From: a virus | Taxonomy: Duplodnaviria; Heunggongvirae; Uroviricota; Caudoviricetes | Direction: 5' to 3' (one strand) | IMG/VR virus record: IMGVR_UViG_3300047548_000621 | Span: 8,200-72,199 of that record | DNA: 64,000 nt | In this document: positions 2,992 through 31,306 of the stretch, piece by piece | Position numbering within the stretch: the first letter of the stretch is position 1 | How the letters are laid out: each line of letters starts with the position of its first letter | The notes under the pieces: generated by a model | Told to the model about the DNA's origin: nothing | The model's database searches: none | What the model saw: only the letters and a program-made list of their open reading frames with translations | Position numbers and translations under genes: made by a program

Positions 2992-3067
2992 TGGTGGACC
3001 CTGTGGGGTTCGAACCCACGACCTACAGGTTAAAAGCCCGTTGCTCTACCTACTGAGCTAAAGGTCC
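2992..3067 (-). tRNA. tRNA-Lys (UUU)
   Basis: Minus-strand cloverleaf. Anticodon loop CUUUUAA, D-arm AGCUCAGUAGGUAGAGC, T-loop GGUUCGAAC, CCA encoded. Confidence 0.8.
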
Positions 3068-3073
3068 ATTATG

Positions 3074-3150
3074 TGGTGCGCCCGGGAGGATTCGAACCTC
3101 CGACCTTTCGATTATCAGTCGAATGCTCTAGCCAACTGAGCTACGAGCGC
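3074..3150 (-). tRNA. tRNA-Ile (GAU)
   Basis: Anticodon stem UUCGA/UCGAA with loop CUGAUAA. Canonical T-arm and CCA. Confidence 0.8.
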
Positions 3151-3156
3151 ATTAAT

Positions 3157-3234
3157 TGGAGCGACGGGTGTGATTCGAACACACGACTTTATTGCTTTGC
3201 AGGCAATTGCATTGGGCCTCTCTGCCACCGTCGC
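3157..3234 (-). tRNA. tRNA-Cys (GCA)
   Basis: Anticodon stem AUUGC/GCAAU with loop CUGCAAA, T-loop GUUCGAAUC, CCA. The D-arm is slightly long. Confidence 0.7.
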
Positions 3235-3282
3235 ATTAAACTTTATAGATTAGTTATATCAACATTCAGGACGAATGTCAAG

Positions 3283-4812: not shown

Positions 4813-4820
4813 ATCAGTAT

Positions 4821-6302: not shown

Positions 6303-6315
6303 AATTTTATTTAAG

Positions 6316-6407
6316 TGGCGGAGAGTGAGGGATTCGAACCCTCGGAACCAGTTTCCCAGTTCGCCTTCTTAGCAGGAAGATGGTTTAAGCCACTCACCCA
6401 ACTCTCC
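6316..6407 (-). tRNA. tRNA-Ser (GCU), class II
   Basis: Long variable arm. Anticodon loop CUGCUAA, acceptor GGAGAGU/ACUCUCC, CCA. Confidence 0.75.
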
Positions 6408-6413
6408 GTAGTT

Positions 6414-6833
6414 CTATATATTTAAATGCTGTTTAGCATTTTCAACATAACTTTCAATTCTTTCTTTTCCAACATTGTTCTTAGAATGCACTATATATCT
6501 AGGAAACTTCTTTTGATTATTTACGCAATATTCAACTAACCATTTTGCGCAATCATATCCGGTTTTTTCCGGTCCATAATCAAAGGTCTTTATTAAATCA
6601 CCGTCGTTGTATGTATAAGAATCTGCCTGGGCATTCTCCTCTAACATAACTGCATAATGAAAGTCCGCTAAATCGTGGTCAAAACACACAAACTTCGGCA
6701 AACCAAAAAACTCAACGTGTCTGACAAAACCGTCAAAGCTACGAGCTATAAAAATAGAATCATAGCGAGGAAACTCGGCCCACGTTACTTGATCGGGCAT
6801 TCTTTCGTCATCAAGAAATAAAACGTAAGACAT
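6414..6833 (-). CDS. Hypothetical protein
   Basis: The ORF-track N-terminus (to 6923) overlaps tRNA-Ser(UGA). The internal Met MSYVLFLDD at 6831-6833 is taken as the start. Confidence 0.4.
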   Translation of the reverse strand: MSYVLFLDDERMPDQVTWAEFPRYDSIFIARSFDGFVRHVEFFGLPKFVCFDHDLADFHYAVMLEENAQADSYTYNDGDLIKTFDYGPEKTGYDCAKWLVEYCVNNQKKFPRYIVHSKNNVGKERIESYVENAKQHLNI

Positions 6834-6849
6834 TGTTAATCCTAATAGT

Positions 6850-6937
<88 letters not shown>

Positions 6938-6977
6938 ATATTCATATTTATGAGCGTATTACTACTGTAGTAAAAAG

Positions 6978-7052
6978 TGGTGCGCCCGGCAGGACTCGAA
7001 CCCGCAACCTAGCCCTTATGAGGGGCCAGCTCCACCATTGAGCTACAGGCGC
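6978..7052 (-). tRNA. tRNA-Met or Ile2 (CAU)
   Basis: Anticodon loop CUCAUAA, canonical T-arm GGUUCGAGUCC, CCA. Elongator, initiator and lysidine-Ile identities cannot be separated by eye. Confidence 0.7.
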
Positions 7053-7061
7053 ATTATTATT

Positions 7062-7148
7062 TGGTGGGAGTGGATGGATTCGAACCAACTCAGCCTTCCG
7101 ACAACAGATTTACAGTCTGCCCCAGCTCTCCAACTCTGGCGCACTCCC
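7062..7148 (-). tRNA. tRNA-Tyr (GUA), class II
   Basis: Anticodon loop CUGUAAA, long variable arm, acceptor GGGAGUG/CACUCCC, CCA. Confidence 0.7.
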
Positions 7149-7158
7149 AAATTAAACT

Positions 7159-7380
7159 TTACAAAAATTGATGGAGCCAACCATCAGCCAACTTCTGAAC
7201 TTCTTCGTCAGAAGCAAAATACTTATTCATATCGTTAATAGCGTCAAGTGTATCAAGGACATCATCTTCGTCCAACCCTTGATTACGCAAATGATTTAGA
7301 TAATCAGTAAGAGTTTCACAATCACACAGTTCTTGTTCAACATTCTTCTTACCAAACTCGACTTGAATAACTTGGCCCAT
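7159..7380 (-). CDS. Small acidic hypothetical protein
   Basis: 73-aa ORF. Confidence 0.3.
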   Translation of the reverse strand: MGQVIQVEFGKKNVEQELCDCETLTDYLNHLRNQGLDEDDVLDTLDAINDMNKYFASDEEVQKLADGWLHQFL

Positions 7381-7396
7381 AGTTGGCTCCTATGTG

Positions 7397-7627
7397 TTAC
7401 TTGGTTGCAGATTCCGTTGCAGCACCAGATGGAGTATCAGATGCAGTCTTTACGGTACCATCATCATTAAGCTGAACATCAGCAGATGAGGATGCAGCAG
7501 CGGCTTCATCAGCCGGTACATCAACAGTTTCAGTTCCCTTACTGCAAGCAGCAAGAGTAGCAAGGGCCGCAACAGCAGCAATAGTTACAATCTTCTTCAT
7601 ATTTTTTCCTCTTAATAAATGGTCCAT
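7397..7627 (-). CDS. Small lipoprotein
   Basis: Signal peptide with lipobox LAAC (MKKIVTIAAVAALATLAAC), followed by a low-complexity Ala/Ser/Thr-rich tail. Confidence 0.45.
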   Translation of the reverse strand: MDHLLRGKNMKKIVTIAAVAALATLAACSKGTETVDVPADEAAAASSSADVQLNDDGTVKTASDTPSGAATESATK

Positions 7628-7651
7628 TATTGAACCAAACTCTAAATTATT

Positions 7652-7727
7652 GGTGACCCCTACGGGATTCGAACCCGTGATCTTTCCCGTGAAAGGGGAA
7701 TGTCCTAAGCCGCTAGACGAAGGGGCC
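7652..7727 (-). tRNA. tRNA-Glu (UUC)
   Basis: Anticodon stem UUCCC/GGGAA with loop CUUUCAC, T-loop GGUUCGAAUCC, CCA. Confidence 0.8.
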
Positions 7728-7899
7728 GATAAACTTGTTACGCTATTGCTGCAATATAGCTTCGGGACTTCGAAACCCGAACCTGGTCCCTATTGTCGCC
7801 TTATGGGCTATCGTCGTTCTCCGTGCTAGCCTTACACCACATCTACTGTCACCGTTTGCAACCGTAAAATGCAGCAATATTAAAACTTTTTATTGATTT

Positions 7900-8180
7900 T
7901 GGTATGAGCGGCGGGACTCGAACCCGCACGTCCAAAGGACACAAGATTTTCTTACCACTATAGCTTTCGCTACCCATTAGTTTGTGGTCTGGACTATCCC
8001 TTCATCATATCATGACTGACTTAGATGCCTGCCGTCTAGTCTCTACACCTTCCCTTTCGGGCTTGGCTCGGGATCAGCATTTTACAGCCTTCCCCGAATT
8101 TGACAGGTTCTACTCTAGAGATTTCCCTCTAGGCACTCAAATTAATAAGTCTCGGGCGTCTACCATTCCGCCACGCTCAC
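7900..8180 (-). tRNA. tRNA-Leu (UAA) interrupted by a group I intron (exon 1 at 8147-8180, exon 2 at 7900-7950)
   Basis: The two exons join to an 85-nt class II tRNA. Acceptor GUGAGCG/CGCUCAU, D-arm UGGCGGAAUGGUAGACGC, anticodon stem CGAGA/UCUUG with loop CU-U|AAAA, variable arm, T-arm GCGGGUUCGAGUCCCGC, CCA. The split falls between U34 and A35. Confidence 0.75.
7951..8146 (-). ncRNA. Group I intron (tRNA-Leu UAA type, 196 nt, no ORF)
   Basis: Follows a U at the 5' splice site and ends with G before the 3' exon. Carries recognisable group I conserved elements: P-like AAAUUCGGGGAA, Q-like AUCCCGAGCC, R-like GUAGAGACUAGACGG, S-like AAGGGAUAGUCC. Confidence 0.65.
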
Positions 8181-8240
8181 ACATTAAAACTTAACCAACA
8201 ATGTCAAAGAATAGAGTGTGTTTCTCACTCTGTATATCTC

Positions 8241-8269
8241 TTTATACGATATAATAGGATAAATGTCAA
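8241..8269 (-). promoter_or_regulatory. Sigma70 / T4-early-like promoter (minus strand)
   Basis: Minus strand reads TTGACA, 17 nt, TATAAA. Confidence 0.4.
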
Positions 8270-8332
8270 GAAGTTTTTTCAAAAAAGCACACAATTTCAG
8301 AGAACCGAAAGAAATCAAACAAATTGGTATAA

Positions 8333-8409
<77 letters not shown>

Positions 8410-8413
8410 TATA

Positions 8414-8806
8414 TTAGAAGTGAACTACACCACTGTCAATGACAGGATGCTCATCGTCTGTGCGATCTACAATTGTGTAGGTGAATTTGGTTGTTCCAAA
8501 CTCACGGAGCATATCTGAAACACTGTCTAGTGTGAAATCTTTACAAGAGTAAAGATCAAACTTGAAAAAGGATGGCTCACCAGACCAAAAATGAATGCTA
8601 CTGTGACTAGTAGTAATGCCTACCATACCGGTAACACCTTCGTTACCTTCATCATCACAATATACGCAGATAGGATCAATCAATATTTTCATATCAACTG
8701 CTTCAACCAATCGGCGGAACCAATCATTTAGTTGGGGAACATACTCTGGGCCAGGAGCCTCTGCTAGGTATCCTGTAACCAGGACGTGCTTATTAACTTG
8801 AGCCAA
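8414..8806 (-). CDS. speD: S-adenosylmethionine decarboxylase proenzyme (pyruvoyl-dependent, SpeH/SpeD-like)
   Basis: 130 aa. The motif TTSHSSIHFWSGEP...FKFDLYSC matches the SES(H)xSIHTWPE self-cleavage region of bacterial and archaeal AdoMetDC. Confidence 0.6.
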   Translation of the reverse strand: MAQVNKHVLVTGYLAEAPGPEYVPQLNDWFRRLVEAVDMKILIDPICVYCDDEGNEGVTGMVGITTSHSSIHFWSGEPSFFKFDLYSCKDFTLDSVSDMLREFGTTKFTYTIVDRTDDEHPVIDSGVVHF

Positions 8807-8884
8807 CTCATAAAACCTTTCTCATCAATTTTACTGTCAGACAGCGAATAACTATTTATCATTATGTGTGTAGTTTTTAAGAAA

Positions 8885-8959
8885 TGGTAGCGCCGAGGAA
8901 TTCTGCCATCCTGACCTTTCGGGTGTAAACCGAATGCTCTACTTCTGAGCTACGGCGCC
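8885..8959 (-). tRNA. tRNA-Val (UAC)-like with non-canonical T-loop (GGCAGAA) and D-loop lacking GG; possible pseudogene
   Basis: Acceptor GGCGCCG/CGGCGCU, anticodon stem UUCGG/CCGAA with loop UUUACAC, CCA. The T-stem has a 53-61 mismatch and the T-loop has no TΨC. Confidence 0.45.
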
Positions 8960-8971
8960 ATTATTAAAATA

Positions 8972-9049
8972 TGGTCGGGGTAGCAGGATTCGAACCTGCG
9001 ACCTCCTGCTCCCAAAGCAGGCCGTCTAACCAGACTGACGTACACCCCG
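8972..9049 (-). tRNA. tRNA-Pro (UGG)
   Basis: Anticodon stem CCUGC/GCAGG with loop UUUGGGA, T-arm GCAGGUUCGAAUCCUGC, CCA. Confidence 0.8.
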
Positions 9050-9056
9050 ATATTCT

Positions 9057-9131
9057 TGGTGGAGACGGAGGGAATCGAACCCTCAAGTGCGCCTTGCAAA
9101 GGCGCCAGTTTCCCGTTAGCTTACGTCCCCG
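9057..9131 (-). tRNA. tRNA-Ala (UGC)
   Basis: Anticodon stem GCGCC/GGCGC with loop UUUGCAA, T-loop GGUUCGAUUCC, CCA. Confidence 0.7.
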
Positions 9132-9150
9132 TTGAACTATTTATATACTC

Positions 9151-9179
9151 ACTATAACATAGGCAAATTCCTATGTCAA
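9151..9179 (-). promoter_or_regulatory. Sigma70 / T4-early-like promoter (minus strand)
   Basis: Minus strand reads TTGACA, 17 nt, TATAGT. A TATATAAATA (late-promoter-like) sequence sits immediately downstream. Confidence 0.45.
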
Positions 9180-9188
9180 GAAAAAACT

Positions 9189-9266
9189 TGGTGCGCCCGG
9201 CAGGATTCGAACCTGCAACTTGAAGCTTAGAAGGCTCCTGCTCTATCCAGTTGAACTACGAGCGCG
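9189..9266 (-). tRNA. tRNA-Arg (UCU)
   Basis: Anticodon stem GGAGC/GCUUC with loop CUUCUAA, T-arm GCAGGUUCGAAUCCUGC, CCA. Confidence 0.75.
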
Positions 9267-9320
9267 TTATTCTTACTTATACGATAGATTGAAACGAGTG
9301 TCAACCTCTTTTTTCAAGAA

Positions 9321-9396
9321 TGGTGCTCTAGGAGAGAATCGAACTCCCTGTCTCCGGGTTACAAATCCGGCGCATCGCCAGCAATGCTTCTAGAGC
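9321..9396 (-). tRNA. tRNA-Thr (UGU)
   Basis: Acceptor GCUCUAG/CUAGAGC. Anticodon loop UUUGUAA with an A31-C39 mismatch. T-loop GUUCGAUUC, CCA. Confidence 0.65.
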
Positions 9397-9931
9397 GTAA
9401 TATTTTGTTTCTTTGCTTGTATATAGCAGCGTTAGAGACACCTAGCATATTTTCTAGTTCTCCGATTCTGTGCTTGTCAAGCAATGCAATCAAGTCAATA
9501 CTATCCCAATCTACCTTTCGGCTGTTACGCTGGGCACAAGTATGACTGCAAAACTGTTGTGCAACAGGCTTTTGGGCATCGCAGATTGGACAAGCATCAT
9601 ACTCTGACACTTTCTTGAAGTCAGCAAATGCTTCATTAAAACCTTCATACGTTTCCGGAAGTTCTAAGGCTCCTGCGTGAATCTCACTGTGGCAGTTGTG
9701 ACAAACCAAAATACACTTTCTAAGTTCAGTTACGACCTTAGACCATGATTTTGGATTCGCTCTAGTACCACCGAATCCAATGTCTTTTTGACTAGGATCA
9801 ATATGATGAAATGCCAGCGCAGCAGTATGCTTATCATACCCACAGCATTGACATTTCCCGCCCATTGCTTCTACCATCTTATTTTTGGTATTTTCTCTCC
9901 AGCGTTTTACTTTTTCTGATCCATAGCTCAT
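9359..9931 (-). CDS. HNH homing endonuclease
   Basis: 190 aa with HHIDP...CHNCH HNH/zinc motifs. The last ~12 codons overlap the 5' part of tRNA-Thr. Confidence 0.6.
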   Translation of the reverse strand: MSYGSEKVKRWRENTKNKMVEAMGGKCQCCGYDKHTAALAFHHIDPSQKDIGFGGTRANPKSWSKVVTELRKCILVCHNCHSEIHAGALELPETYEGFNEAFADFKKVSEYDACPICDAQKPVAQQFCSHTCAQRNSRKVDWDSIDLIALLDKHRIGELENMLGVSNAAIYKQRNKILRSRSIAGDAPDL

Positions 9932-9991
9932 AATATAACCTCTAACCTGTAATTCTATTTATCATAAAGTTGCAGGTTAGAGGTTTTAATT

Positions 9992-10067
9992 GGCTCCGAC
10001 ACCAGGACTCGAACCTGGAAAAACGCTGATTAACAGTCAGCTGGGTCTACCATTCCCCCATGTCGGA
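9992..10067 (-). tRNA. tRNA-Asn (GUU)
   Basis: Anticodon stem GCUGA/UCAGC with loop CUGUUAA, T-arm CCAGGUUCGAGUCCUGG, CCA. Confidence 0.8.
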
Positions 10068-10093
10068 ATGAACTCTATAAACTATTTAACTTG

Positions 10094-10122
10094 ACTATAG
10101 CAGCCTGACAAATAAATGTCAA
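10094..10122 (-). promoter_or_regulatory. Sigma70 / T4-early-like promoter (minus strand)
   Basis: Minus strand reads TTGACA, 17 nt, TATAGT, just upstream of tRNA-Asn. Confidence 0.45.
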
Positions 10123-10685
10123 GCTGCTATTTTCAAGATCCTACTGTGCTTGGGAACACCTGAAATCAAGTAATCCATCTGATCCGCAAGAATGTTGCGG
10201 TTCTGTAGAATCAAGCTTTCATAGTGGTTCGGCTCGTAGGGAATGTAACGCAATTCCATACCACTTTGCTTTAATGTCTTGCAACCCTTCTTTTGGTTAC
10301 AGTCAAAGCAAGATGTTACGACATTAGTCCATTCGTCCAAACCGCCCAAGAACCTCGGGACAATGTGGTCACGACTCAAATCATACTTACTTGCGAAATG
10401 ATTTCCACAGTAAGCACAGATATGTCTGTCACGAGCAAACAATGTAGGGTTCGTAAGAACTACTTTGTTGTGCTTTTTGAAATCGAAACCGTTACCCCTA
10501 ATAGCAATAATGCTAGGAGTTTCTAGATAGCTACGAGTACCATCGTTCTTGTAACCACCGTTGTATCTAGCAATTACATCACCTAGACTCCAAGCTACCA
10601 GATTTTTTGCGTGATACGAAATTGCTTCGTCGTGGGAGACCCACGTTCTGGGGACACCCGATATGTCTAAGGCTAGAACTGCCAT
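10119..10685 (-). CDS. HNH homing endonuclease
   Basis: 188 aa with the motif YCGN...DHIVP...CFDCNQKKG. Confidence 0.6.
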   Translation of the reverse strand: MAVLALDISGVPRTWVSHDEAISYHAKNLVAWSLGDVIARYNGGYKNDGTRSYLETPSIIAIRGNGFDFKKHNKVVLTNPTLFARDRHICAYCGNHFASKYDLSRDHIVPRFLGGLDEWTNVVTSCFDCNQKKGCKTLKQSGMELRYIPYEPNHYESLILQNRNILADQMDYLISGVPKHSRILKIAA

Positions 10686-10789
10686 AATAAACTCCTGTTA
10701 TTCTTTCTATATTTACTAATCTACAAAGTGACTTCCCTATTGTCTGTTCACTGTACATTTGTTTGACCGAATTGTCAACCAAAATCTTT

Positions 10790-10875
10790 TGGTGCACGGA
10801 AGAGGATTCGAACCTCTACACCATTTCTGATAGTACCCCCTCAAGATACCGCGTCTGCCGTTTCGCCACCCGTGC
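10790..10875 (-). tRNA. tRNA-Leu (GAG), class II
   Basis: Anticodon stem GUAUC/GGUAC with loop UUGAGGG. Long variable arm, T-arm AGAGGUUCGAAUCCUCU, CCA. Confidence 0.65.
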
Positions 10876-11521
10876 GTGAATCCCACTCTTGTATGTCTTT
10901 CATAAGCTCATCAATAGTACAGCTATTTTTCCAAGTCTTTTTGGCGTTAGCTGAATGTAAGACGAACTCGCAATTAGCAGGATGTGATATAATCTTAGGA
11001 TCAATATTGTTAGTAAATCCGTAATGCACTGATATACGATGATCACGGACTACCCCAGTAGGATTAATCTTTTTATGATACATACCGTGTTCTTGTAGAA
11101 GACAGTACCCTTTAACTTTTTCTATACAGGATGATAAGTGGAATGAGCAATCTTCCTTATACATCACCTTGCAAAGTGCTTGCTCATCAGTTATCTTTCT
11201 TTTACCTGTCATGTTCGTGGCCCAAGAACGGATGCTTTCATGAGTATCTTTAGTGAGACCTTTTGCCCAAGCCATCCTCTGTTTAGAATCTTCGGACAAT
11301 GTTGCATAGCGTTCCTTAGCACTTACTCGTTTACCGCTCTCATAAGCGTTCTTTGTGTTAGCACTATTTCTTGCTCTAACAGCAGGGCATTTGTTAGGAA
11401 CAATCTCGCACGAAAGTTTGCCACTTGAGGTAGAGTAGTGTGCAATATTGCCACACCCATAACTACATAACTCATCAGTGGTGATCTTTATTCCTGATTT
11501 AATAGGCATTTGTTTCTCCAT
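10841..11521 (-). CDS. Putative HNH-family or zinc-finger homing endonuclease
   Basis: 226 aa. Cys-rich N-terminus, C-terminal DHRISVHYGF...H motif. The 3' end overlaps tRNA-Leu(GAG). Confidence 0.4.
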   Translation of the reverse strand: MEKQMPIKSGIKITTDELCSYGCGNIAHYSTSSGKLSCEIVPNKCPAVRARNSANTKNAYESGKRVSAKERYATLSEDSKQRMAWAKGLTKDTHESIRSWATNMTGKRKITDEQALCKVMYKEDCSFHLSSCIEKVKGYCLLQEHGMYHKKINPTGVVRDHRISVHYGFTNNIDPKIISHPANCEFVLHSANAKKTWKNSCTIDELMKDIQEWDSRTGGETADAVS

Positions 11522-11569
11522 TGGTATACACGCAAGTATTTATCTTTTGCATACCAATCGGTATTAATT

Positions 11570-11660
11570 TGGTACTCCTGCTCGGATTCGAACCGAGACC
11601 GACCCCTAATCTGGGCTCCGGGATATAAATCCGGCCACTCTACCATTAAGCTACAGGAGT
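11570..11660 (-). tRNA. Class II-like tRNA, anticodon uncertain (best parse loop UUUAUAU with A31-C39 mismatch, possibly Ile-UAU)
   Basis: Perfect 7-bp acceptor ACUCCUG/CAGGAGU, T-arm CUCGGUUCGAAUCCGAG, CCA, and a variable arm of about 20 nt. The anticodon arm is irregular. Confidence 0.4.
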
Positions 11661-11673
11661 ATGAAACTTGCTT

Positions 11674-11747
11674 GGTGCCTCGTGAGGGATTTGAACCCCC
11701 GGCCTTTGCTTTACGAAAGCACTGCACTACCACTGTGCTAACGAGGC
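11674..11747 (-). tRNA. tRNA with uncertain anticodon (best parse CGU, Thr)
   Basis: Acceptor GCCUCGU/ACGAGGC, T-arm GGGGGUUCAAAUCCCUC, CCA. Anticodon stem GUGCU/AGCAA with a 27-43 mismatch and loop UUCGUAA. Confidence 0.4.
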
Positions 11748-12086
11748 TCAGAATGAGTTGTTATTTTTATGCCACTGACCATAAACACAATGTAAAAACT
11801 CGTGCCCTACATATTCCGGTTCATATCTAACTGATGGGTCAATCATATGAATTGTGCAAGTGTCAAACGGATATTTCAACACAGTAAATGCAGCAGTTTT
11901 GCCAGGGAGCTTTTTTTCAGCTACAACCTTACTAAACTCTTGTTCTGTTTTATAAGTTACGATGTTAACTTTCACCGTTTGTCGTTCATACTGTTTTTTA
12001 CCAAACGTATATCCGTCCTTACCTGGAGTAGGACCTTGATTACAACTTACCAATAATAGCAATAATGTTGCACATAATTTTTTCAT
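11748..12086 (-). CDS. Small lipoprotein with HExxH zinc-metallopeptidase motif
   Basis: Signal peptide plus lipobox (LLLLLVSC) and HEFLH near the C-terminus. Confidence 0.45.
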   Translation of the reverse strand: MKKLCATLLLLLVSCNQGPTPGKDGYTFGKKQYERQTVKVNIVTYKTEQEFSKVVAEKKLPGKTAAFTVLKYPFDTCTIHMIDPSVRYEPEYVGHEFLHCVYGQWHKNNNSF

Positions 12087-12294
12087 AGAGAATCTCCCTA
12101 TGATATTTAGTAAATTATAGTGGGCCCGTCACCACAACATAGACGGCATTATGCGGAATTTATCAGCGCCTCCGCTTGTGGATAGCTTGCTATCCTTTGG
12201 GTAAGTTATTGCAGATTACTTTCAGGTTAGCCTTCGCACCGTCTCCAATGTATGCCTACACGGGATTTCATCTTACTAACACCCACTATAAACT

Positions 12295-12378
12295 TGGTGC
12301 CCCGAGAGGGACTTGAACCCCCACGCCTTTCAGCAAAAGATTTTGAGTCTTCCGTGGCTACCATTACACCATCGGGGC
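12295..12378 (-). tRNA. tRNA-Leu (CAA), class II
   Basis: Anticodon stem GAAGA/UCUUU with loop CUCAAAA. Long variable arm, T-arm GGGGGUUCAAGUCCCUC, CCA. Confidence 0.7.
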
Positions 12379-12497
12379 AAGAAACTAGGCCCGGGATATT
12401 TATACTGCATACGGGCGGCGCAGTATCGGTTCAGCCTAGCGCATAGCTTATTGTGCCTTGAGAACACTCCGGTGCACCGCGTTTCTCTTCCGATATT

Positions 12498-12581
12498 TGG
12501 TGCGGGTAGAGGGACTTGAACCCCCACGCGATTAAGCAACAGATTCTAAGTCTGCCGTGGCTACCATTACACCATACCCGC
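12498..12581 (-). tRNA. tRNA-Leu (UAG), class II
   Basis: Anticodon stem GCAGA/UCUGU with loop CUUAGAA, long variable arm, CCA. Close paralog of the Leu(CAA) gene. Confidence 0.7.
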
Positions 12582-12732
12582 ATTTAAAATTATTTACTCG
12601 CCGTGACTCGTATCTCAAATAAAGTCACCGATAGTTCTTTCAACTACTGCTACGGCCTTCGGGTACACTCTCGCTCGGATTGAGCATAGAGCAAGGTCAC
12701 ATACGGCATACCGTACACACACGAGTAAAATT

Positions 12733-12808
12733 TGGTGCCGCCTCGAGGTTTCGATCCCCGTTCTTCGGTGCTTCAAACCGACGCTATCACCAGATCAGCT
12801 AAAGCGGC
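12733..12808 (-). tRNA. tRNA-Phe (GAA)
   Basis: Anticodon stem UCGGU/ACCGA with loop UUGAAGC, T-loop AUCGAAA, CCA. Confidence 0.65.
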
Positions 12809-13360
12809 ATTTAAGTCATTATATTGTTCTTTCTCTATAATGAGAATCTTCTTGTCAGGATGCTGTTCTATTACTGCATCCATCTTAGCTCTATCATTGC
12901 CCCACCATCTGCCCTTTATCTCAACATAAAGATCAAAAGCAGGAAGATAGAAATCAGGAGTGTAGTTCTTTGTTATTCCATCTAGAACATACTTCCAAGA
13001 CTTGCATCTTTCCCAAGCAATGTTATTATCGTTACAGTATAAAGCAAAAGTCCTTTCCCAGGTACCTTGCACTTTCTTACCGCTCACTTCAAACCATTTA
13101 CTCTTGCCACCTGGATTATGCTGTGACATTCGTTCGGACAATCGTTTACGAGCATCCTCGCCCATTACAGTAGGACCGTATTCAGCAATGCGAAGTTTTG
13201 TAGCTTCAGATTTAGTCCTAGTAATTAGGTCGCCGCGATTTTTGGCATTGACCAATGAGTTAAAAGCGAGTCCGTGCTTCTGTTGCAGGCCTCTAAAGCT
13301 CAACCCAGCGTCATAATCTTTCTGTATTTCAGCCCAATCGTAATGTTTCTTGTGTGGCAT
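12773..13360 (-). CDS. PD-(D/E)XK-family nuclease with N-terminal helix-turn-helix (putative homing endonuclease)
   Basis: 195 aa. The motif PDFYLP...DLYVEIKG fits PD...(D/E)xK. The 3' end overlaps tRNA-Phe and the start codon abuts a tRNA 5'-half remnant. Confidence 0.5.
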   Translation of the reverse strand: MPHKKHYDWAEIQKDYDAGLSFRGLQQKHGLAFNSLVNAKNRGDLITRTKSEATKLRIAEYGPTVMGEDARKRLSERMSQHNPGGKSKWFEVSGKKVQGTWERTFALYCNDNNIAWERCKSWKYVLDGITKNYTPDFYLPAFDLYVEIKGRWWGNDRAKMDAVIEQHPDKKILIIEKEQYNDLNAALADLVIASV

Positions 13361-13385
13361 TTGTGTTCTCCGTGATACTATTTAT

Positions 13386-13436
13386 CCCAGATACACAATC
13401 AACTGCTCTACCAACTGAGCTACAGAGGCAAAAACT
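13386..13436 (-). pseudogene. tRNA 5'-half remnant (acceptor plus D-arm only)
   Basis: GCCUCUGUAGCUCAGUUGGUAGAGCAG is a canonical acceptor and D-arm. No matching 3' half (CAGAGGC-N-CCA) is found nearby. Confidence 0.4.
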
Positions 13437-13588
13437 ATTGACTGGCTGCGTCACACCTACGCGATTTAACAGGATAGACTGTCCTGACCAATCTTTAGTT
13501 TAGTAAAATAACAATGTCAAAGAATAGAAAGCATCGCTCTCTATAGTCTTGTTATAGCAAACAATGATAGTGTTGTCAACTATTATTT

Positions 13589-13667
13589 TGGTCACGCCGA
13601 CGAGATTCGAACTCGCATTCTCCGACTTGAAAGGACGAACTCTTATGCCAATTAGAGGACGGCGTGA
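13589..13667 (-). tRNA. tRNA-Glu (UUC)-like, second copy, degenerate
   Basis: Acceptor CACGCCG/CGGCGUG, T-arm GCGAGUUCGAAUCUCGU, CCA. Anticodon loop CUUUCAA with one U-U mismatch in the stem. The D-loop is 12 nt. Confidence 0.4.
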
Positions 13668-13672
13668 TATCT

Positions 13673-13756
13673 TGGTGGGCCGGTGTGGACTTGAACCACG
13701 CCCCGAAGGATGAGTTTTACAGACTCACTGCTAAATCCAATTAGCTTTACCGTCCC
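13673..13756 (-). tRNA. tRNA-Tyr (GUA), class II, second copy
   Basis: Anticodon stem UGAGU/ACUCA with loop CUGUAAA, long variable arm, T-loop GGUUCAAGUCC, CCA. The acceptor has one A-G mismatch. Confidence 0.55.
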
Positions 13757-13763
13757 ATTAACT

Positions 13764-13948
13764 TGGTGAGGGCGACCAGATTCGAACTGGCAGAAGTCGT
13801 TACCAAAGCATTACCAGTGGCTGCCATCAGGTTCAAAGACTGCCGCGAGTCTACAAAAAATACCCCTAGGCACTTGCGAACAAACTCGGGTGTTACCCCA
13901 ATCGTTCCTTACTTTAACGATGCGTATACCTATTTCCGCTACGCCCTC
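13764..13948 (-). ncRNA. tRNA-like RNA with a ~105-nt insertion between the anticodon-stem halves
   Basis: 5' part has acceptor GAGGGCG, D-arm GCGGAAAUAGGUAUACGC and stem UCGUU. 3' part has AACGA, a 5-nt variable loop, T-arm GCCAGUUCGAAUCUGGU, acceptor CGCCCUC, A, CCA. The two parts are separated by about 105 nt that contains a second AACGA. Confidence 0.4.
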
Positions 13949-13957
13949 ATATAATCT

Positions 13958-14033
13958 TGGTGGAGCCTACGGGGATCAAACCCGTGACCTTTTGTCTGCC
14001 AGACAAATGCTCTCTCATCTGAGCTAAAGCCCC
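13958..14033 (-). tRNA. Atypical tRNA-like (Cys-GCA-like anticodon loop UGGCAGA, D-loop without GG, T-loop UUUGAUC)
   Basis: Acceptor GGGGCUU/AGGCUCC with CCA. Anticodon stem UUGUC/GACAA has G at position 33. D and T loops are non-canonical. Confidence 0.35.
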
Positions 14034-14041
14034 AATATCGG

Positions 14042-14124
14042 AGGAGTGTGATGGCATCGAACCATGTACCTTTCGGTACCTACTGATTTCGAATCAGTGC
14101 GGGGAGCCAACCCCAGCACACTCC
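14042..14124 (-). tRNA. tRNA-Ser (CGA), class II
   Basis: Acceptor GGAGUGU/ACACUCC, anticodon stem ACUGA/UCAGU with loop UUCGAAA, variable-arm hairpin GGUACCGAAAGGUAC. The 3' end reads UCC rather than CCA. Confidence 0.6.
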
Positions 14125-14198
14125 AATCTCGCGGGGGAGTTGCACTGTCCCCCTTCCCTCAATCTGCTATTGTGCAACGCAGTAATGAGGAGTATTTC

Positions 14199-14274
14199 TG
14201 GTCGGGAAGACAGGGATCGAACCTGCGACCTCGGCGTCCCGAACGCCGCGCTCTACCACCTGAGCTACTTCCCG
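14199..14274 (-). tRNA. tRNA-Pro (CGG)
   Basis: Anticodon stem CGGCG/CGCCG with loop UUCGGGA, T-arm GCAGGUUCGAUCCCUGU, CCA. Confidence 0.7.
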
Positions 14275-14410
14275 TTGTTATTCTTTAATCTATCAAAAGC
14301 ACGTTTCATCCGCGCTCTTGCTTCTTCTGCTTCTTTTCCTTTGAGGACTCTTACGCCCTCAAAAACACGGTTGCTCGTGTAGTTGCTAAAGTCAGGTAAA
14401 TCAGACTTCA
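14264..14410 (-). CDS. Small ORF (about 48 aa, MKSDLPDFSNYTSNRVFEGVRVLKGKEAEEARARMKRAFDRLKNNNGK)
   Basis: ATG preceded by AAAGGAAAUCAUU. The stop lies inside the tRNA-Pro(CGG) 5' end. The 124-aa ORF in the track looks like an over-extension across two tRNAs. Confidence 0.3.
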
Positions 14411-14427
14411 TAATGATTTCCTTTAAA

Positions 14428-14506
14428 TGGTCGGGATAGCAGGACTCGAACCTGCGACCTCTTGTCCCCCAGACAAGCGCGCTAAACCAGGCTGCGCCAT
14501 ACCCCG
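14428..14506 (-). tRNA. tRNA-Pro (GGG)
   Basis: Acceptor CGGGGUA/UAUCCCG, anticodon stem CUUGU/ACAAG with loop CUGGGGG, T-arm GCAGGUUCGAGUCCUGC, CCA. Confidence 0.7.
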
Positions 14507-14585
14507 TTGAATTGGCCGCCCCCTTTATTTTCCGTCCCCTTGCACTGAATAAACAGTAAAGCACAAGGTGAGAGGGCGATAAGAT

Positions 14586-14681
14586 TGGTGGACTGTGAAG
14601 GATTCGAACCTTCGAGTGGCCGTCGCCAATGAGTACCATACTTAATGGGAATCGAACCCAATCCTCTTCCAGGAACAGTCC
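14586..14681 (-). ncRNA. tRNA-like element of unknown fold (7-bp acceptor plus CCA, two T-arm-like hairpins)
   Basis: Ends GAAGGUUCGAAUCCUUC-ACAGUCC-A-CCA with a matching 5' GGACUGU 96 nt upstream. The interior holds a second UGGGUUCGAUUCCCA hairpin and no recognisable anticodon arm. Confidence 0.3.
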
Positions 14682-14687
14682 AATTAG

Positions 14688-14777
14688 TGGCGGAGTCGGT
14701 GAGATTCGAACTCACGGTACCCTTACGAGTACAACACCTTTCCAGGGTGTCACAATCGGCCACTCTGTCACGACTCC
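14688..14777 (-). tRNA. tRNA-Ser (GGA), class II
   Basis: Acceptor GGAGUCG/CGACUCC, anticodon stem ACACC/GGUGU with loop CUGGAAA, long variable arm, CCA. Confidence 0.7.
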
Positions 14778-14925
14778 AGTATTTGGCGCGACCACTTATT
14801 TTCTATGCCGACTACTACTTTCGGAAGGTAGCTCTTGCATGTGGCCGCATAAGAATGGAAAAGCGGTGACGTTTTTTCGTCACTATTATAGTGGTATCAC
14901 TCGCCGCCATAAACTTGGTGCGCGA

Positions 14926-14990
14926 TGCAGGAGTTGAACCTGCCGCCTCTTCCATGTCAAGGAAGCGTTCTACCGATGAACTAATCGCGC
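14926..14990 (-). tRNA. tRNA-Val (GAC)
   Basis: Acceptor GCGCGAU/AUCGCGC, anticodon stem CUUCC/GGAAG with loop UUGACAU, T-arm GCAGGUUCAACUCCUGC, CCA. Confidence 0.75.
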
Positions 14991-14997
14991 ATTGAAT

Positions 14998-15072
14998 TGG
15001 CTGACTAAGTAGGACTCGAACCTACATATCCTTCATTAACAGTGAAGTTCATTACCATTATGATATTAGCCA
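14998..15072 (-). tRNA. tRNA-Asn (GUU), second, AT-rich copy
   Basis: Anticodon stem CUUCA/UGAAG with loop CUGUUAA, T-arm GUAGGUUCGAGUCCUAC, CCA. The acceptor starts with U. Confidence 0.6.
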
Positions 15073-15130
15073 ATGAAACTGTGTGCGTTTTTAAAAAGGG
15101 ACGCACGGCCCGAGCAGCCGAAGCTGTAAC

Positions 15131-15208
15131 TGGGGTGGGTGAAGGGATTCGAACCCTCGACATTCGGCACCACAAGCCGACGCTCTAACCAACTGAGCTA
15201 CACTCACC
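15131..15208 (-). tRNA. tRNA-His (GUG) with G-1
   Basis: Anticodon stem UCGGC/GCCGA with loop UUGUGGU. Extra 5' G opposite discriminator C73, which is the bacterial His identity feature. CCA. Confidence 0.7.
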
Positions 15209-15214
15209 ATGAAT

Positions 15215-15290
15215 TGGAGGACCCGCCCGGGCTCGAACCGGGGACCTAGAGATTAAAAGTCTCCCACTCTACCTACTGAGTTACGGGTCC
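15215..15290 (-). tRNA. tRNA-Lys (UUU), second copy
   Basis: Acceptor GGACCCG/CGGGUCC, anticodon loop CUUUUAA, T-arm CCCGGUUCGAGCCCGGG, CCA. Confidence 0.7.
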
Positions 15291-15340
15291 GTAAAACTCT
15301 CAGCTTCGGCTGTAGACCGAACTTAATCGGTCTTAAAAAC

Positions 15341-15417
15341 TGGTGCAACCAGAAGGATTCGAACCTTCAACCTTCGGTTTCGTAGACCGATGCTCTATCC
15401 AGTTGAGCCATGGCTGC
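15341..15417 (-). tRNA. tRNA-Arg (ACG)
   Basis: Anticodon stem UCGGU/ACCGA with loop CUACGAA, T-arm GAAGGUUCGAAUCCUUC, CCA. Confidence 0.75.
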
Positions 15418-15428
15418 GTGAAATTGTT

Positions 15429-16085
15429 TTATAATGATTGTAGTCTATCTATAATAGAATTACGTTCTTCAATTGTGTTTTCTTTTAGGTCTAGAGGATA
15501 GAAAAACGCCATCGGAAGTTCAAATGCCGGCACTGACTCTAGTCCACCCTTAATTGTTTGGTTGTGATAAGTTTTAGCATTTAAACTAAAAACACTCTTG
15601 TTTTCAGCTTCATATTGCTCTATCAAGACAGGTGTACTTGAAGGGAAACTTTCATTGGGATCAGATACCTCACCCGGAACTTCATAAAAATTAATTAAAC
15701 TGTTGTTTGCGCCATCAAGCAAAAAAGTTAATGTGTAGTCAGAAGTGGTTGGGTGCAGATGTTTGTGTATATTTAAAGTAACGTTATTCAACCCAAATAA
15801 CATAGGCAAAAAGTTATATTTCTTACATAATTCAGAAATATTGGTCCTGTTAATTACTTCACTATAAAGTAATTGATCTATATCTCTCACTTCATCCGCA
15901 AGAGCATTGAAACTCATATAAGTTTGTGTACCAGTAACCGTCTGATATAATCCAGATGCCCAGCAATACGAATTCTGTACTGAAGGATCTAACTCATAGA
16001 CCAGAGAGAAGGCTTCTAGAGTGGAAGTGACAATTTCATTGTACACTGAATCTGACAGAATTACGGGAACATAATTTTTTGACAC
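15429..16085 (-). CDS. Hypothetical protein
   Basis: 218-aa ORF inside the tRNA array. No recognisable motif. Confidence 0.4.
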   Translation of the reverse strand: MSKNYVPVILSDSVYNEIVTSTLEAFSLVYELDPSVQNSYCWASGLYQTVTGTQTYMSFNALADEVRDIDQLLYSEVINRTNISELCKKYNFLPMLFGLNNVTLNIHKHLHPTTSDYTLTFLLDGANNSLINFYEVPGEVSDPNESFPSSTPVLIEQYEAENKSVFSLNAKTYHNQTIKGGLESVPAFELPMAFFYPLDLKENTIEERNSIIDRLQSL

Positions 16086-16138
16086 CAGGAAACTTTTCCT
16101 TTTTTGTTATTTAGTCCCGAAATTATTCGTAATTAATA

Positions 16139-16215
16139 TGGTAGACCCTGAGAGATTCGAACTCCCGACCTTCTGTTTCGAAGACAGACATTCTATCCAG
16201 CTGAACTAAGGGTCC
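16139..16215 (-). tRNA. tRNA-Arg (UCG)
   Basis: Anticodon stem UCUGU/ACAGA with loop CUUCGAA, T-arm GGGAGUUCGAAUCUCUC, CCA. Confidence 0.75.
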
Positions 16216-16226
16216 AAAATATTATA

Positions 16227-16300
16227 TGGTGCTCCCAGGAGGTACCGCCCCTCCGGCTCATCATTACCAATGATGTGTATTGCTTTTATACTATGGGAGC
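16227..16300 (-). tRNA. Atypical tRNA-Thr (GGU)-like with non-canonical T-loop (GGCGGUA) and D-loop (AAAAGCA)
   Basis: Perfect acceptor GCUCCCA/UGGGAGC with CCA. Anticodon stem CAUCA/UGAUG with loop UUGGUAA. T-stem GGAGG/CCUCC is perfect but the loop has no TΨC, and the D-loop has no GG. Confidence 0.4.
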
Positions 16301-16331
16301 CGACATCATATTTAGTATGCTAATTCCGGTG

Positions 16332-16928
16332 TTAATTTAAAGGAAGTCCTCTTGATGCTCTGCCATTGCCCTTATTACGACCTTTCCAAGTCGGCGTAAT
16401 ACTATGACAATTAGGACAAACTAATCTAAGGTTGGCGAATTCGTTATTTCCCGCGTTGCCGTCAATATGATCTAATTCCAACGACAATTTTGCGCCGCGC
16501 CATTCCGATATGCCACATTCAAAGCAGTTGCTTCCGTACTCACGAATCAACGCAGTTTTGATAGTCGTTCGTTCGGTTAGGTTTCCTTCATATAATCGTT
16601 TTTTAGTGTCCTCTCTAGTAGGAATATGCTGGCAATCTGCACTACAATATTTTTTTACTAGGTGCTTAGAAGAGGTGTGTTTTTTTCCGCAGCCTGCACA
16701 TTCCCATTCTACTTTGGTAGCTCTATTTTTATTAGAATGGGTAGCGGCGCAAGTGTGGTTACAGAATTTTTTGTGCCTATCAACATATGATAGTGTTTTG
16801 TTGCATTCCGCACAAGAACTAGGAGAACTGTCATAAAGTTCTACTCGTTGCAGTTTTTTCTTTTCTAAGGTAGCTCTGGCTTTTTTCATACCAAGCGCGC
16901 CTGCTTCTGCTTTTGTTAGTTTTCGCAT
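16332..16928 (-). CDS. HNH homing endonuclease
   Basis: 198 aa. LELDHIDGN...LRLVCPNCH HNH motif, several CxxC pairs. Confidence 0.6.
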   Translation of the reverse strand: MRKLTKAEAGALGMKKARATLEKKKLQRVELYDSSPSSCAECNKTLSYVDRHKKFCNHTCAATHSNKNRATKVEWECAGCGKKHTSSKHLVKKYCSADCQHIPTREDTKKRLYEGNLTERTTIKTALIREYGSNCFECGISEWRGAKLSLELDHIDGNAGNNEFANLRLVCPNCHSITPTWKGRNKGNGRASRGLPLN

Positions 16929-16993
16929 ATAATACTCTCCACAATGTATTTATGCTCTAGGTTCAAAACCAGCTAAAAGCAGCATTATAAAGT

Positions 16994-17067
16994 TGGATGC
17001 CCCTCTAGGACTCGAACCTAGGTTGACGGATTCAAAGTCCGCTCTCTTACCACTAGAGGAAGGGGCA
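16994..17067 (-). tRNA. tRNA-Gln (UUG)
   Basis: U1-A72 acceptor (UGCCCCU/AGGGGCA), anticodon stem GCGGA/UCCGU with loop CUUUGAA, T-arm CUAGGUUCGAGUCCUAG, CCA. Confidence 0.65.
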
Positions 17068-17085
17068 ATGTCAACTTGTAGACAC

Positions 17086-17114
17086 ATTATATATGCGATT
17101 GCATAAAATGTCAA
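17086..17114 (-). promoter_or_regulatory. Sigma70 / T4-early-like promoter, near consensus (minus strand)
   Basis: Minus strand reads TTGACA, 17 nt, TATAAT, about 20 nt upstream of tRNA-Gln(UUG). Confidence 0.55.
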
Positions 17115-17120
17115 ATAAAA

Positions 17121-17196
17121 TGGATGCCCGAGATGGGGTCGAACCACCAACCTCCTGGTTCAGAGCCAGGCGATCTGCCAATTGATCTATCGGGCA
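17121..17196 (-). tRNA. tRNA-Gln (CUG)
   Basis: U1-A72 acceptor (UGCCCGA/UCGGGCA), anticodon stem CCUGG/CCAGG with loop CUCUGAA, T-loop GGUUCGACCCC, CCA. Confidence 0.7.
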
Positions 17197-23934: not shown

Positions 23935-24134
23935 CGTCTCCGATCCGTGAAAACATTTTTACCGCATTGCGGGCACTTGATGCCGCGATCAACCGAATAA
24001 TCACCTAAATAATCGTAGCTGTGCTTGATGGACTGCACTTCACTCTGGGTATATTCTAGAACCGAAGCACAAGACCAACAAGTAACACGATGGACGGCTG
24101 ATTCGTCTCTTCCTACAACCTTAACCATAATCAA
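23931..24134 (-). CDS. Small zinc-ribbon protein
   Basis: 67 aa. CWSC...CPQC. Confidence 0.35.
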   Translation of the reverse strand: MIMVKVVGRDESAVHRVTCWSCASVLEYTQSEVQSIKHSYDYLGDYSVDRGIKCPQCGKNVFTDRRR

Positions 24135-26721: not shown

Positions 26722-27258
26722 TTATTCACCTCGCAAATAAGCAAGAACATTTTCAGGTGAAGTTTCACCATATGGGTCAGTTGTGCAGTTATGCTCAATG
26801 CCGGGCTCAATGAACCACTTTTCAATAACACCATTATCGATAATAACTGCATAGCGCCAAGAACGAACACCAAATCCAAGATTGTCCTTCTGAACAAGCA
26901 TATTCATCTGGCTAGTGAAATAACCAGAACCATCTGGAATAACCTTAACATTCTGCAATCCTTGATCTTGCGCCCACTTATTCATAACAAAACTGTCATT
27001 CACAGAAACACAGTAGATTTCATCAATCCCGAGTTCCTTGAACTTTTCATAGTTCTGTTCAAAGCCCGGAAGCTGATAAGTTGAGCAAGTTGGGGTGAAC
27101 GCTCCGGGGAGCGAAAACAATACTACTCGCTTACCTGCGAAATAGTCGTAACTTGATACATCCTGCCAGCGATAGGGATTTGGTCCTTCAATAGAATCAT
27201 CACGGACACGAGTCTTAAAGACTACAGCAGGAACAATTTGTGGAAGTTGATCAGTCAT
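26722..27258 (-). CDS. Peroxiredoxin (Prx5/redoxin-like, AhpC/TSA family)
   Basis: 178 aa. LPGAFTPTCS contains the peroxidatic Cys in an FTPTC context. Confidence 0.7.
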   Translation of the reverse strand: MTDQLPQIVPAVVFKTRVRDDSIEGPNPYRWQDVSSYDYFAGKRVVLFSLPGAFTPTCSTYQLPGFEQNYEKFKELGIDEIYCVSVNDSFVMNKWAQDQGLQNVKVIPDGSGYFTSQMNMLVQKDNLGFGVRSWRYAVIIDNGVIEKWFIEPGIEHNCTTDPYGETSPENVLAYLRGE

Positions 27259-27275
27259 ATTTTTCCTTTAGTATA

Positions 27276-27350
27276 TGGCGCGCTCGGTGGGATTCGAACC
27301 CACTGTCTCGGGCTTTAGAGACCCTTGCAATACCATTTAGCCTCGGGCGC
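27276..27350 (-). tRNA. tRNA-like gene, candidate amber suppressor (CUA), anticodon arm ambiguous
   Basis: Acceptor GCGCCCG/CGAGCGC (one C-A mismatch), D-loop with GG, T-arm GUGGGUUCGAAUCCCAC, G73, CCA. Standard numbering gives stem AGGGU/GCCCG (27-43 mismatch) and loop CUCUAAA. The alternative is a perfect 5-bp stem GUCUC/GAGAC with an 8-nt loop. Confidence 0.4.
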
Positions 27351-27394
27351 GTTTAATTTCTATGTTGAGAATATATCAGTTATTACAATGATAA

Positions 27395-27649
27395 TCAATT
27401 AATTTGGGTATCTTTGTGACCCTGAATAAACTTCTTTTCTTGGAATGTTCTTTCCTTAAAGAACTTGCGAGGATTACCGCACATTGAACAATCAGGATCA
27501 CCGCAATTCAATGAATGCATCTTAGCATAGCGATGGGGCTGATTCTTAGTATGATTGATACCGTGACATTTAGCAATGCGCTTCTGTCGTTCAATGGCAA
27601 CTTGTGTCCTAGCGCGGCGAGTTGATTTCTTAAGTCTGTTATCGCTCAT
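27395..27649 (-). CDS. Small basic Cys/His-rich protein
   Basis: 84-aa ORF. Confidence 0.3.
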   Translation of the reverse strand: MSDNRLKKSTRRARTQVAIERQKRIAKCHGINHTKNQPHRYAKMHSLNCGDPDCSMCGNPRKFFKERTFQEKKFIQGHKDTQIN

Positions 27650-31204: not shown

Positions 31205-31306
31205 ATTTCTTTCCTTTATACTAATAATTATCTGAAATAATATGTTCCAAAAAAAATCCAGATAAGGCGGTGCCCACTCTTTCAAGCGGGCACCCATTTT
31301 ATCTAC

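Follow-up and report, generated by a model that had tools for sequence, protein, structure and literature searches.

Does the solitary tRNA gene at positions 27276-27350 read the amber codon UAG, and what could such a tRNA do in a phage that uses UAG as a stop? Throughout the text, the window denotes the whole 64-kb stretch of phage DNA that was analysed. From sequence comparison, we assign a probability of roughly 0.7 to the reading that the gene encodes a functional elongator-type UAG-decoding tRNA, conserved as an accessory gene by a very large, uncultured phage with a standard genetic code. The gene is the following.

27276..27350, minus strand: tRNA gene with anticodon CUA (reads UAG), 75 nt, CCA encoded (ARAGORN; Rfam RF00005)

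ARAGORN, run on the whole window, places a tRNA with anticodon cta at exactly 27276-27350 on the minus strand. Rfam RF00005 matches 27279-27350 in the canonical register with 50.0 bits (gathering score 29; E = 1e-7 over the 64-kb window), covering model positions 1-71 of 71 and thus a full-length cloverleaf. The original prediction of a tRNA-like gene at these coordinates, possibly an amber suppressor with anticodon CUA, therefore holds in position and anticodon: the ARAGORN call proposed with it as a check and the Rfam covariance model both return CUA in the canonical register and no sense anticodon, and CUA is found in 35/35 distinct homologues.

The minus strand reads GCGCCCG AG GCTA AATGGTA TTGC A AGGGT CTCTAAA in the 5' half of the gene and GCCCG AGACA GTGGG TTCGAAT CCCAC CGAGCGC G CCA in the 3' half. 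The anticodon stem consists of G28-C42, G29-C41, G30-C40 and U31.G39 with an A27.G43 mismatch on top, and the 7-nt anticodon loop, CUCUAAA, contains U33, C34-U35-A36 and A37; together with the 5-nt variable loop, these are the 4-bp stem, the 27-43 mismatch and the loop that had been described beforehand. Among the core nucleotides, A14, G18-G19, the T loop TTCRANY, U33 and a purine at position 37 are present, while U8, which is near-universal among tRNAs, is replaced by A8 (followed by G9). Further irregularities are C5.A68 and U12.U23; the discriminator is G73. Folding of the naked RNA is no more stable than that of shuffled sequence (z = -0.5).

The surroundings of the gene comprise the following features.

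26722..27258, minus strand: peroxiredoxin gene, 178 aa (Pfam Redoxin 1.2e-26, AhpC-TSA 6.7e-16; phrog_2281 2.9e-68)
27259..27275, minus strand: 17-nt spacer from the tRNA CCA to the peroxiredoxin start codon, containing an AAGGA ribosome-binding site
27370..27398, minus strand: sigma-70-like promoter TTGATT-17-TATATT (consensus scan; motif match only)
27395..27649, minus strand: orf84, basic 84-aa protein with a CxxxxCxxC motif (phrog_4499 1.7e-8), directly upstream of the tRNA
2992..17196, minus strand: main tRNA array, with 34 ARAGORN tRNAs, two Rfam-only tRNAs and an intron-split tRNA-Leu, and HNH/endonuclease ORFs between them

A position next to peroxiredoxin and 10 kb from the array had also been noticed earlier, and the measured distances agree: the Redoxin gene is 17 nt away and the array ends at 17196, 10.1 kb off. 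The peroxiredoxin gene lies directly downstream and constitutes a syntenic anchor in related phages. A sequence scan found no terminator-like site between it and the tRNA, and a spacer of 17 nt that lacks a terminator would imply a tRNA-mRNA co-transcript. The promoter motif has a TG just upstream of the -10 hexamer and ends 19 nt before the 5' end of the tRNA. Comparable motif matches (at least 8/12) are located 3-30 nt, mostly 8-14 nt, upstream of the tRNA in 22/37 family members, and several of them are perfect (12/12, TTGACA-N16/17-TATAAT). Homologues of orf84 occur in 42 related loci; the order orf84-tRNA-peroxiredoxin is conserved in most loci of the clade closest to the window, and it is also the order in locus L002.

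ARAGORN reports 35 tRNAs in the window, all on the minus strand, with 34 at 2992-17196 and the CUA gene alone; counting Rfam matches as well, the window holds at least 37 tRNA genes. A tRNA-Leu(UAA) at 7900-8180 (minus), for which ARAGORN made no call, is split by a group I intron (Rfam RF00028, 65.7 bits) into a 5' exon at 8180-8147 and a 3' exon at 7950-7900. The intron (8146-7951) is inserted between U34 and A35, as is the tRNA-Leu intron of cyanobacteria and plastids. Two Rfam-only tRNA-like genes at 8888-8959 and 16230-16300 (minus; 48.9 and 48.5 bits) have non-standard T loops and apparent anticodons UAC (Val) and GGU (Thr). ORFs of the HNH/endonuclease-I type lie between the tRNA genes (10119-10685, 12773-13360 and 16332-16928, minus) and are probably homing endonucleases that shape the array. 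A polynucleotide-kinase-like ATPase (2319-2990, plus) flanks the array and a cREC_REC protein (cyclic-phosphate-processing receiver; 6414-6923, minus) is encoded inside it, which suggests RNA repair as a possible answer to host defences that cleave tRNAs. Also by the array are two neighbouring paralogues, B12-binding radical SAM proteins of 509 and 493 aa (3283-6302, minus).

The remainder of the window encodes ribonucleotide reductase, tail-fibre proteins and ORFs of 922, 1048, 1176 and 2321 aa, the last of which (43490-50455, minus) adjoins tail-fibre-like genes. NAD salvage pairs have been described for other jumbo phages, and the window contains one at 21885-25180 (minus), composed of a NAMPT of 457 aa and a fused NMNAT/NUDIX protein of 349 aa with a macro-domain-like ORF between them. 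A TonB-dependent receptor (777 aa, Plug and beta-barrel) and an SPFH/Band-7 protein (459 aa) at 28964-32686 (minus) have no homologue in any related phage locus; therefore, they look recently inserted, in this genome only. Among cultured phages, neither megablast of the 5 kb around the tRNA nor tblastn of two large window proteins gave a match, so the phage appears to be without a close cultured relative. The same peroxiredoxin is encoded on a 120-kb JGI metagenome contig, outside which the right end of the window would fall by coordinate arithmetic; no record was found for the right-end protein of the window, and the left-end protein was found only on a 3-kb contig.

Relatives with a 71-88% identical peroxiredoxin are numerous in IMG/VR, where 150 related peroxiredoxin loci were found and 80 were kept. 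ARAGORN detects CUA tRNAs near the peroxiredoxin gene in 14/80 of these loci; by sequence they fall into four or more types with no relation to each other. In IMG/VR, a 42-nt exact-match pattern taken from the window tRNA finds nothing, and a looser pattern was required. With the anticodon left as NNN, this pattern was searched in IMG/VR, JGI metagenomes and GTDB genomes, and it returned 14 IMG/VR loci and 31 JGI metagenome loci, in which 27/27 distinct sequences have CTA. The scan of GTDB genomes gave 0 loci; thus no host-encoded parent or prophage copy was found. The 27 pattern-found sequences and two ARAGORN-called ones constitute a 29-variant alignment. In ten loci where ARAGORN had registered no such tRNA, a covariance model of the lineage then reveals homologues that score 67-76 bits, and the presence or absence of an ARAGORN call is therefore misleading for this gene. 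These homologues are located as follows.

L004 9906-9980: CUA tRNA missed by ARAGORN
L005 9155-9229: CUA tRNA missed by ARAGORN
L007 7925-7998: CUA tRNA missed by ARAGORN
L008/L009 9542-9615: CUA tRNA missed by ARAGORN
L011 9660-9733: CUA tRNA missed by ARAGORN
L015 8073-8146: CUA tRNA missed by ARAGORN
L016 6986-7060: CUA tRNA missed by ARAGORN
L024 9521-9595: CUA tRNA missed by ARAGORN
L027 9891-9964: CUA tRNA missed by ARAGORN

These copies have a D stem with hardly any pairing (GCTG/TCAC); one group measures 74 nt, and in some members the D loop has 6 nt. Compensatory changes keep the acceptor and T stems perfectly paired. Pattern and covariance-model searches together give 35 distinct sequences, all of them CUA. 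Members of the lineage are carried on IMG/VR contigs of 360,683 and 364,247 bp (IMGVR_UViG_3300032675_000001 and IMGVR_UViG_3300043418_000114).

Over the 35 variants, 91% of the cells are paired and 10/21 pairs have changed on both sides, of which the acceptor stem accounts for five, the D and T stems for two each and the anticodon stem for one; 0/500 shuffles reached the observed values, and slid controls show 23-44% pairing. Covariation of this kind is, as judged from the aligned sequences, the signature of a tRNA kept functional by selection. G18, G19 and the CCA end are invariant in the lineage, the T loop TTCRAnY is nearly so (5/7 positions), and U33 and A36-A37-A38 are invariant or nearly so. 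A8 is present in every member, and also in 3/6 tRNA-Trp genes of the same phage group. On these grounds, the gene is a genuine and probably functional amber suppressor.

At least three further types of CUA tRNA, unrelated to this lineage, are present in the related phages.

L023 9891-9967: CUA tRNA in the same slot upstream of the peroxiredoxin gene, resembling the tRNA-Sup of phage XacN1
L030 1586-1660 / L031 3794-3868: CUA tRNA of another type
L060 8533-8607: CUA tRNA within a 27-gene tRNA array

The occurrence of several unrelated types in one group suggests that CUA tRNAs have repeatedly arisen or been acquired. In a more distant clade, tmRNA genes are located just downstream of the peroxiredoxin gene, with the tags ANDDVYEMALAA, ANDSNYDMALAA and ANDDYYEMALAA.

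L034, L037-L039, L043-L045, L056, L057, L059: tmRNA loci
L127 4049-4469: tmRNA locus

Suppressor and tmRNA thus occupy the peroxiredoxin neighbourhood in different clades, and no 20-kb locus of this phage group was seen to contain both.

The covariation has to be weighed against the possibility that the product is a tRNA-shaped RNA which does not decode, acting as a defence decoy or mimic or as a processing signal of the peroxiredoxin transcript, or that the gene is decaying. The unusual core (A8, weak D stem, mismatched anticodon stem) and the lack of thermodynamic stability are in line with such a role, as is the position of the tRNA in the 5' leader of an mRNA; in addition, the RNA-repair-type genes by the tRNA array (the PNK-like ATPase and cREC_REC) suggest tRNA-cleaving defences, e.g., an anticodon nuclease. 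However, G18, G19 and CCA are invariant, the T loop, U33 and A36-A37-A38 nearly or fully so, and compensatory changes have accumulated in the acceptor, D and T stems, with one in the anticodon stem, across 35 variants. A decaying gene would not keep features typical of a translating tRNA under selection, and copies are also known that lie within a tRNA array or at a distance from the peroxiredoxin gene. A non-decoding RNA is consequently regarded as unlikely.

The invariant oddities of the lineage, i.e., A8-G9, the degenerate D stem, the conserved A27.G43 and the U.G or C.A pair closing the anticodon stem, could also mark a tRNA built for a dedicated job, either as a host-takeover device or in the service of unseen TAG genes, although we consider this improbable. 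In the first version, expression from an early host-type promoter would lead to the extension of UAG-ended host proteins and to the loading of ribosome-rescue pathways, and the phage itself would be spared through its few TAG stops and close backup stops. In the second version, the tRNA would serve TAG-containing genes elsewhere in the ~360-kb genomes and might be charged by a phage enzyme.

Another possibility is a code-15-like switch, in which late genes with in-frame TAG elsewhere in the ~360-kb genome are translated once the suppressor has accumulated. Suppressor tRNAs are strongly tied to recoded phages and have been proposed to be made early (10.1101/2021.08.26.457843), the CUA tRNA has an early-type promoter motif, and the TAG survey covers part of the genome, namely the 64-kb window and pieces of up to 20 kb from relatives (~1.3 Mb in all). 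Within this sequence, nevertheless, the phage uses the standard code and UAG is not read as sense as far as seen. Minus-strand genes tile the window under the standard code, and coding density under code 11 is high throughout. A greedy gene set of the window has 39 TAA, 23 TGA and 8 TAG stops; about half of the eight TAG-ended ORFs overlap tRNA genes, and behind each TAG the next in-frame stop follows 3-15 codons on. No ORFs in the 64-kb window are joined through a TAG, and reading TAG as sense lengthens the window ORFs less than the same treatment of TGA or TAA.

The absence of wholesale TAG recoding and of in-frame TAG from structural genes had been anticipated in the original prediction, and both statements stand: the window contains 0 in-frame TAG, and the putative tail and structural ORFs of 416, 604, 922, 1048, 1176 and 2321 aa, amounting to ~7,000 codons of large putative tail/structural genes, are clean. 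A count of TAG at gene ends, which had been proposed at the same time, gives about 7% of stops when run on the window and related loci. This share is 6.8% in loci with the tRNA vs 7.5% in loci without it (Fisher p = 0.89), and the distance from TAG to the next stop does not differ between the two. Homologues of the TAG-ended genes of the window end in TAA, TGA or TAG interchangeably, and none of them has a conserved read-through extension after TAG. An initial set of 433 homology-spanned TAGs consisted almost entirely of antisense or off-frame shadows and of translations across tRNA genes; with the screen restricted to the coding strand and the alignments read, no credible TAG spanned by homology is left in the 1.3 Mb of window and related loci.

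In recoded phages, recoding is concentrated in structural and lysis genes, whereas the large structural genes here are free of in-frame TAG, coding density under code 11 is high and TAG serves as the normal stop of about 7% of genes. Furthermore, neither release factor (RF2) nor synthetase domains are present among 29 window proteins scanned with Pfam, and the complete genome of XacN1 shows no recoding either (PMC5852040). Recoding of the phage's own genes is hence disfavoured on the sequence read, and a late switch of this kind has a low probability.

A misread register would be another explanation: in the CUUCUAAAA variants of the loop, UCU lies one base 5' of CUA, and the gene might really encode a tRNA-Arg(UCU). 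In 10/35 variants the stem ends in C31.A39, which would allow a 9-nt loop with UUCUAA in it; phage tRNA-Arg(UCU) genes, at 67-77% identity, rank with the closest sense tRNAs, and locus L035 has a tRNA-Arg(tct) in the same slot, just upstream of the peroxiredoxin gene. Yet U31.G39 closes the 7-nt loop CUCUAAA in the window copy and 24 other variants, the shifted register would put C instead of the universal U at position 33, and CUA is chosen by ARAGORN and Infernal alike. The main ArgRS determinant, A20, is not conserved in the lineage, and the resemblance to Arg tRNAs is no greater than that to Thr, Met or Trp tRNAs, which together make an arginine tRNA very unlikely.

A related matter is the stem GUCUC/GAGAC, which does exist as an alternative pairing and is used in the minimum-free-energy structure of the naked RNA. 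Of its five pairs, three (29-46, 30-45 and 33-42) each fail in 6-9/29 variants, and it is without compensatory support among homologues. The canonical anticodon stem has a single compensatory change (pair 28-40, G-C to A-U), and the earlier preference for the canonical register over this stem agrees with both pairing and covariation in the homologues.

Finally, the ARAGORN label 'Pyl' is its default for any CUA anticodon and the sole support for pyrrolysine insertion at UAG, and tRNA-Pyl identity is refuted by the structure of the CUA tRNA: tRNA-Pyl has a 3-nt variable loop, a 6-bp anticodon stem and a short D loop that lacks G18-G19, its acceptor and D stems are a single nucleotide apart, and pylS/pylBCD lie close by. 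The CUA tRNA, in contrast, has a 5-nt variable loop, a 5-bp anticodon stem, a 7-nt D loop with G18-G19, the T loop TTCGAAT and 2 nt between these stems, and Pfam detects neither PylS nor PylBCD domains in the 29 window proteins scanned.

If the tRNA decodes UAG, the amino acid inserted is probably lysine, as a weak suggestion from generally known identity rules. The candidates considered are the seven amino acids with a codon that differs from UAG by a single base. A variable loop as short as this one excludes the bacterial Leu, Ser and Tyr types, and the invariant G1-C72 speaks against GlnRS; U1-A72 is found in every tRNA-Gln gene of the phage itself. A73, present in most variants (21/29 aligned), argues against TrpRS, and C2-G71 together with C11-G24 argues against GluRS. 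In E. coli, many artificial CUA tRNAs are charged by LysRS, for which U35 is the main determinant. A36-A37-A38 constitutes the MiaA motif for i6A37 on tRNAs reading UNN codons, a modification that promotes efficient decoding.

A particular sense ancestor does not stand out. Arg(UCU), Thr, Met, Trp and Cys tRNAs are all similarly close, at 67-71% pairwise identity, and the lineage model scores Met(CAU) best among sense tRNAs (63.6 bits), followed by Lys (59.3) and Arg (58.1). A8-G9 is common to some phage tRNA-Trp genes, but A73 in most variants argues against Trp identity. No close relative of the CUA tRNA was found among the tRNAs of the main array.

For a functional suppressor, the motifs at the locus suggest that host RNA polymerase would transcribe the tRNA from its own sigma-70-type promoter, probably early, and probably on one transcript with the peroxiredoxin mRNA that follows. 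The tRNA would be freed by RNase P and 3' trimming and charged by a host aminoacyl-tRNA synthetase (lysine fits best), and in its charged form it would compete with RF1 at UAG. The phage could tolerate such a suppressor because its TAG stops are few (about 7%) and nearby in-frame stops, a median of 7 codons on, back them up. No suppression target was found, and the phage's own coding sequence shows no benefit; the best guess, admittedly speculative, is that the suppressor acts on UAG codons other than those of the conserved phage genes. Takeover might involve the extension of host proteins whose genes end in UAG, or the tRNA might potentially buffer a very large genome against amber mutations, both of which are speculation. 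The locus alone reveals no new mechanism. On the other hand, at least 35 variants with an invariant CUA, a fixed neighbourhood and a promoter motif of their own make it hard to call such genes accidents, and the lineage provides a defined set of natural candidate amber suppressors with unusual cores, which are possible orthogonal tRNAs.

The laboratory amber suppressors of E. coli (supE, supF, Su7 and synthetic CUA tRNAs) have CUA and A37-A38 and compete with RF1, and predictions of the synthetase that charges a CUA tRNA are based on them. They are single-mutation derivatives of identifiable sense tRNAs. Unlike these, the window lineage has no identifiable sense parent, and natural selection has kept it in many phage genomes.

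Phage suppressor tRNAs are usually explained as a tool for the in-frame stops of recoded phages. Borges et al. tie suppressor tRNAs to recoded phages, and describe a relative with the standard code that has gained a suppressor, 'potentially preceding code change' (10.1101/2021.08.26.457843). The code 15 phages (crAss-like, Lak, Agate) carry CUA tRNAs in phages of standard-code hosts, as here; they are recoded, whereas the window phage shows no in-frame TAG, RF2 or synthetase in the sequence scanned. Rfam detects no HDV-like theta ribozyme adjoining the CUA tRNA.

Suppressor tRNAs in standard-code jumbo phages are already known from XacN1 and RsoM2USA, and the window gene belongs to that kind. 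In a BLAST search of cultured phages (50,697 records), the best match to the CUA tRNA is the annotated tRNA-Sup of the Xanthomonas jumbo phage XacN1 (AP018399, 36047-36205), a phage with two CUA tRNAs in tandem and, 1 kb downstream of them, a tmRNA. XacN1 has 18 amber stops only, and in-silico read-through found nothing, the targets not being identified (PMC5852040). Like the window phage, XacN1 is a jumbo phage with a very large tRNA complement and a standard code, in which TAG is a rare stop and no read-through target is found. Its tRNA-Sup also shares the loop CUCUAAA, the three central pairs of the anticodon stem and the non-Watson-Crick 27.43 and 31.39 with the window tRNA. By sequence, however, the XacN1 tRNA-Sup are not relatives of the window lineage: the two copies reach 60.9 and 46.1 bits against the lineage model, compared with 63.6 for a sense tRNA-Met of the window and 67-102 for true members. 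They have U8 and a regular D arm and stand in tandem near a tmRNA, whereas the window tRNA has A8 and is a single copy by peroxiredoxin, with no tmRNA in the 64-kb window; moreover, the two phages have almost no detectable proteins in common.

The Ralstonia jumbo phage RsoM2USA has one CUA suppressor among 44 tRNAs in a genome of 344 kb; its function is given as unknown, and the authors, like those of the XacN1 study, found no target for it (PMC8504454). It likewise combines a single CUA tRNA with a standard-code jumbo phage, a likeness drawn from its description, and it differs in that it is a soil Ralstonia phage, whereas the window represents uncultured metagenome phages. After XacN1 and RsoM2USA, the present locus constitutes the third case of its kind, independent of the other two and much better sampled.
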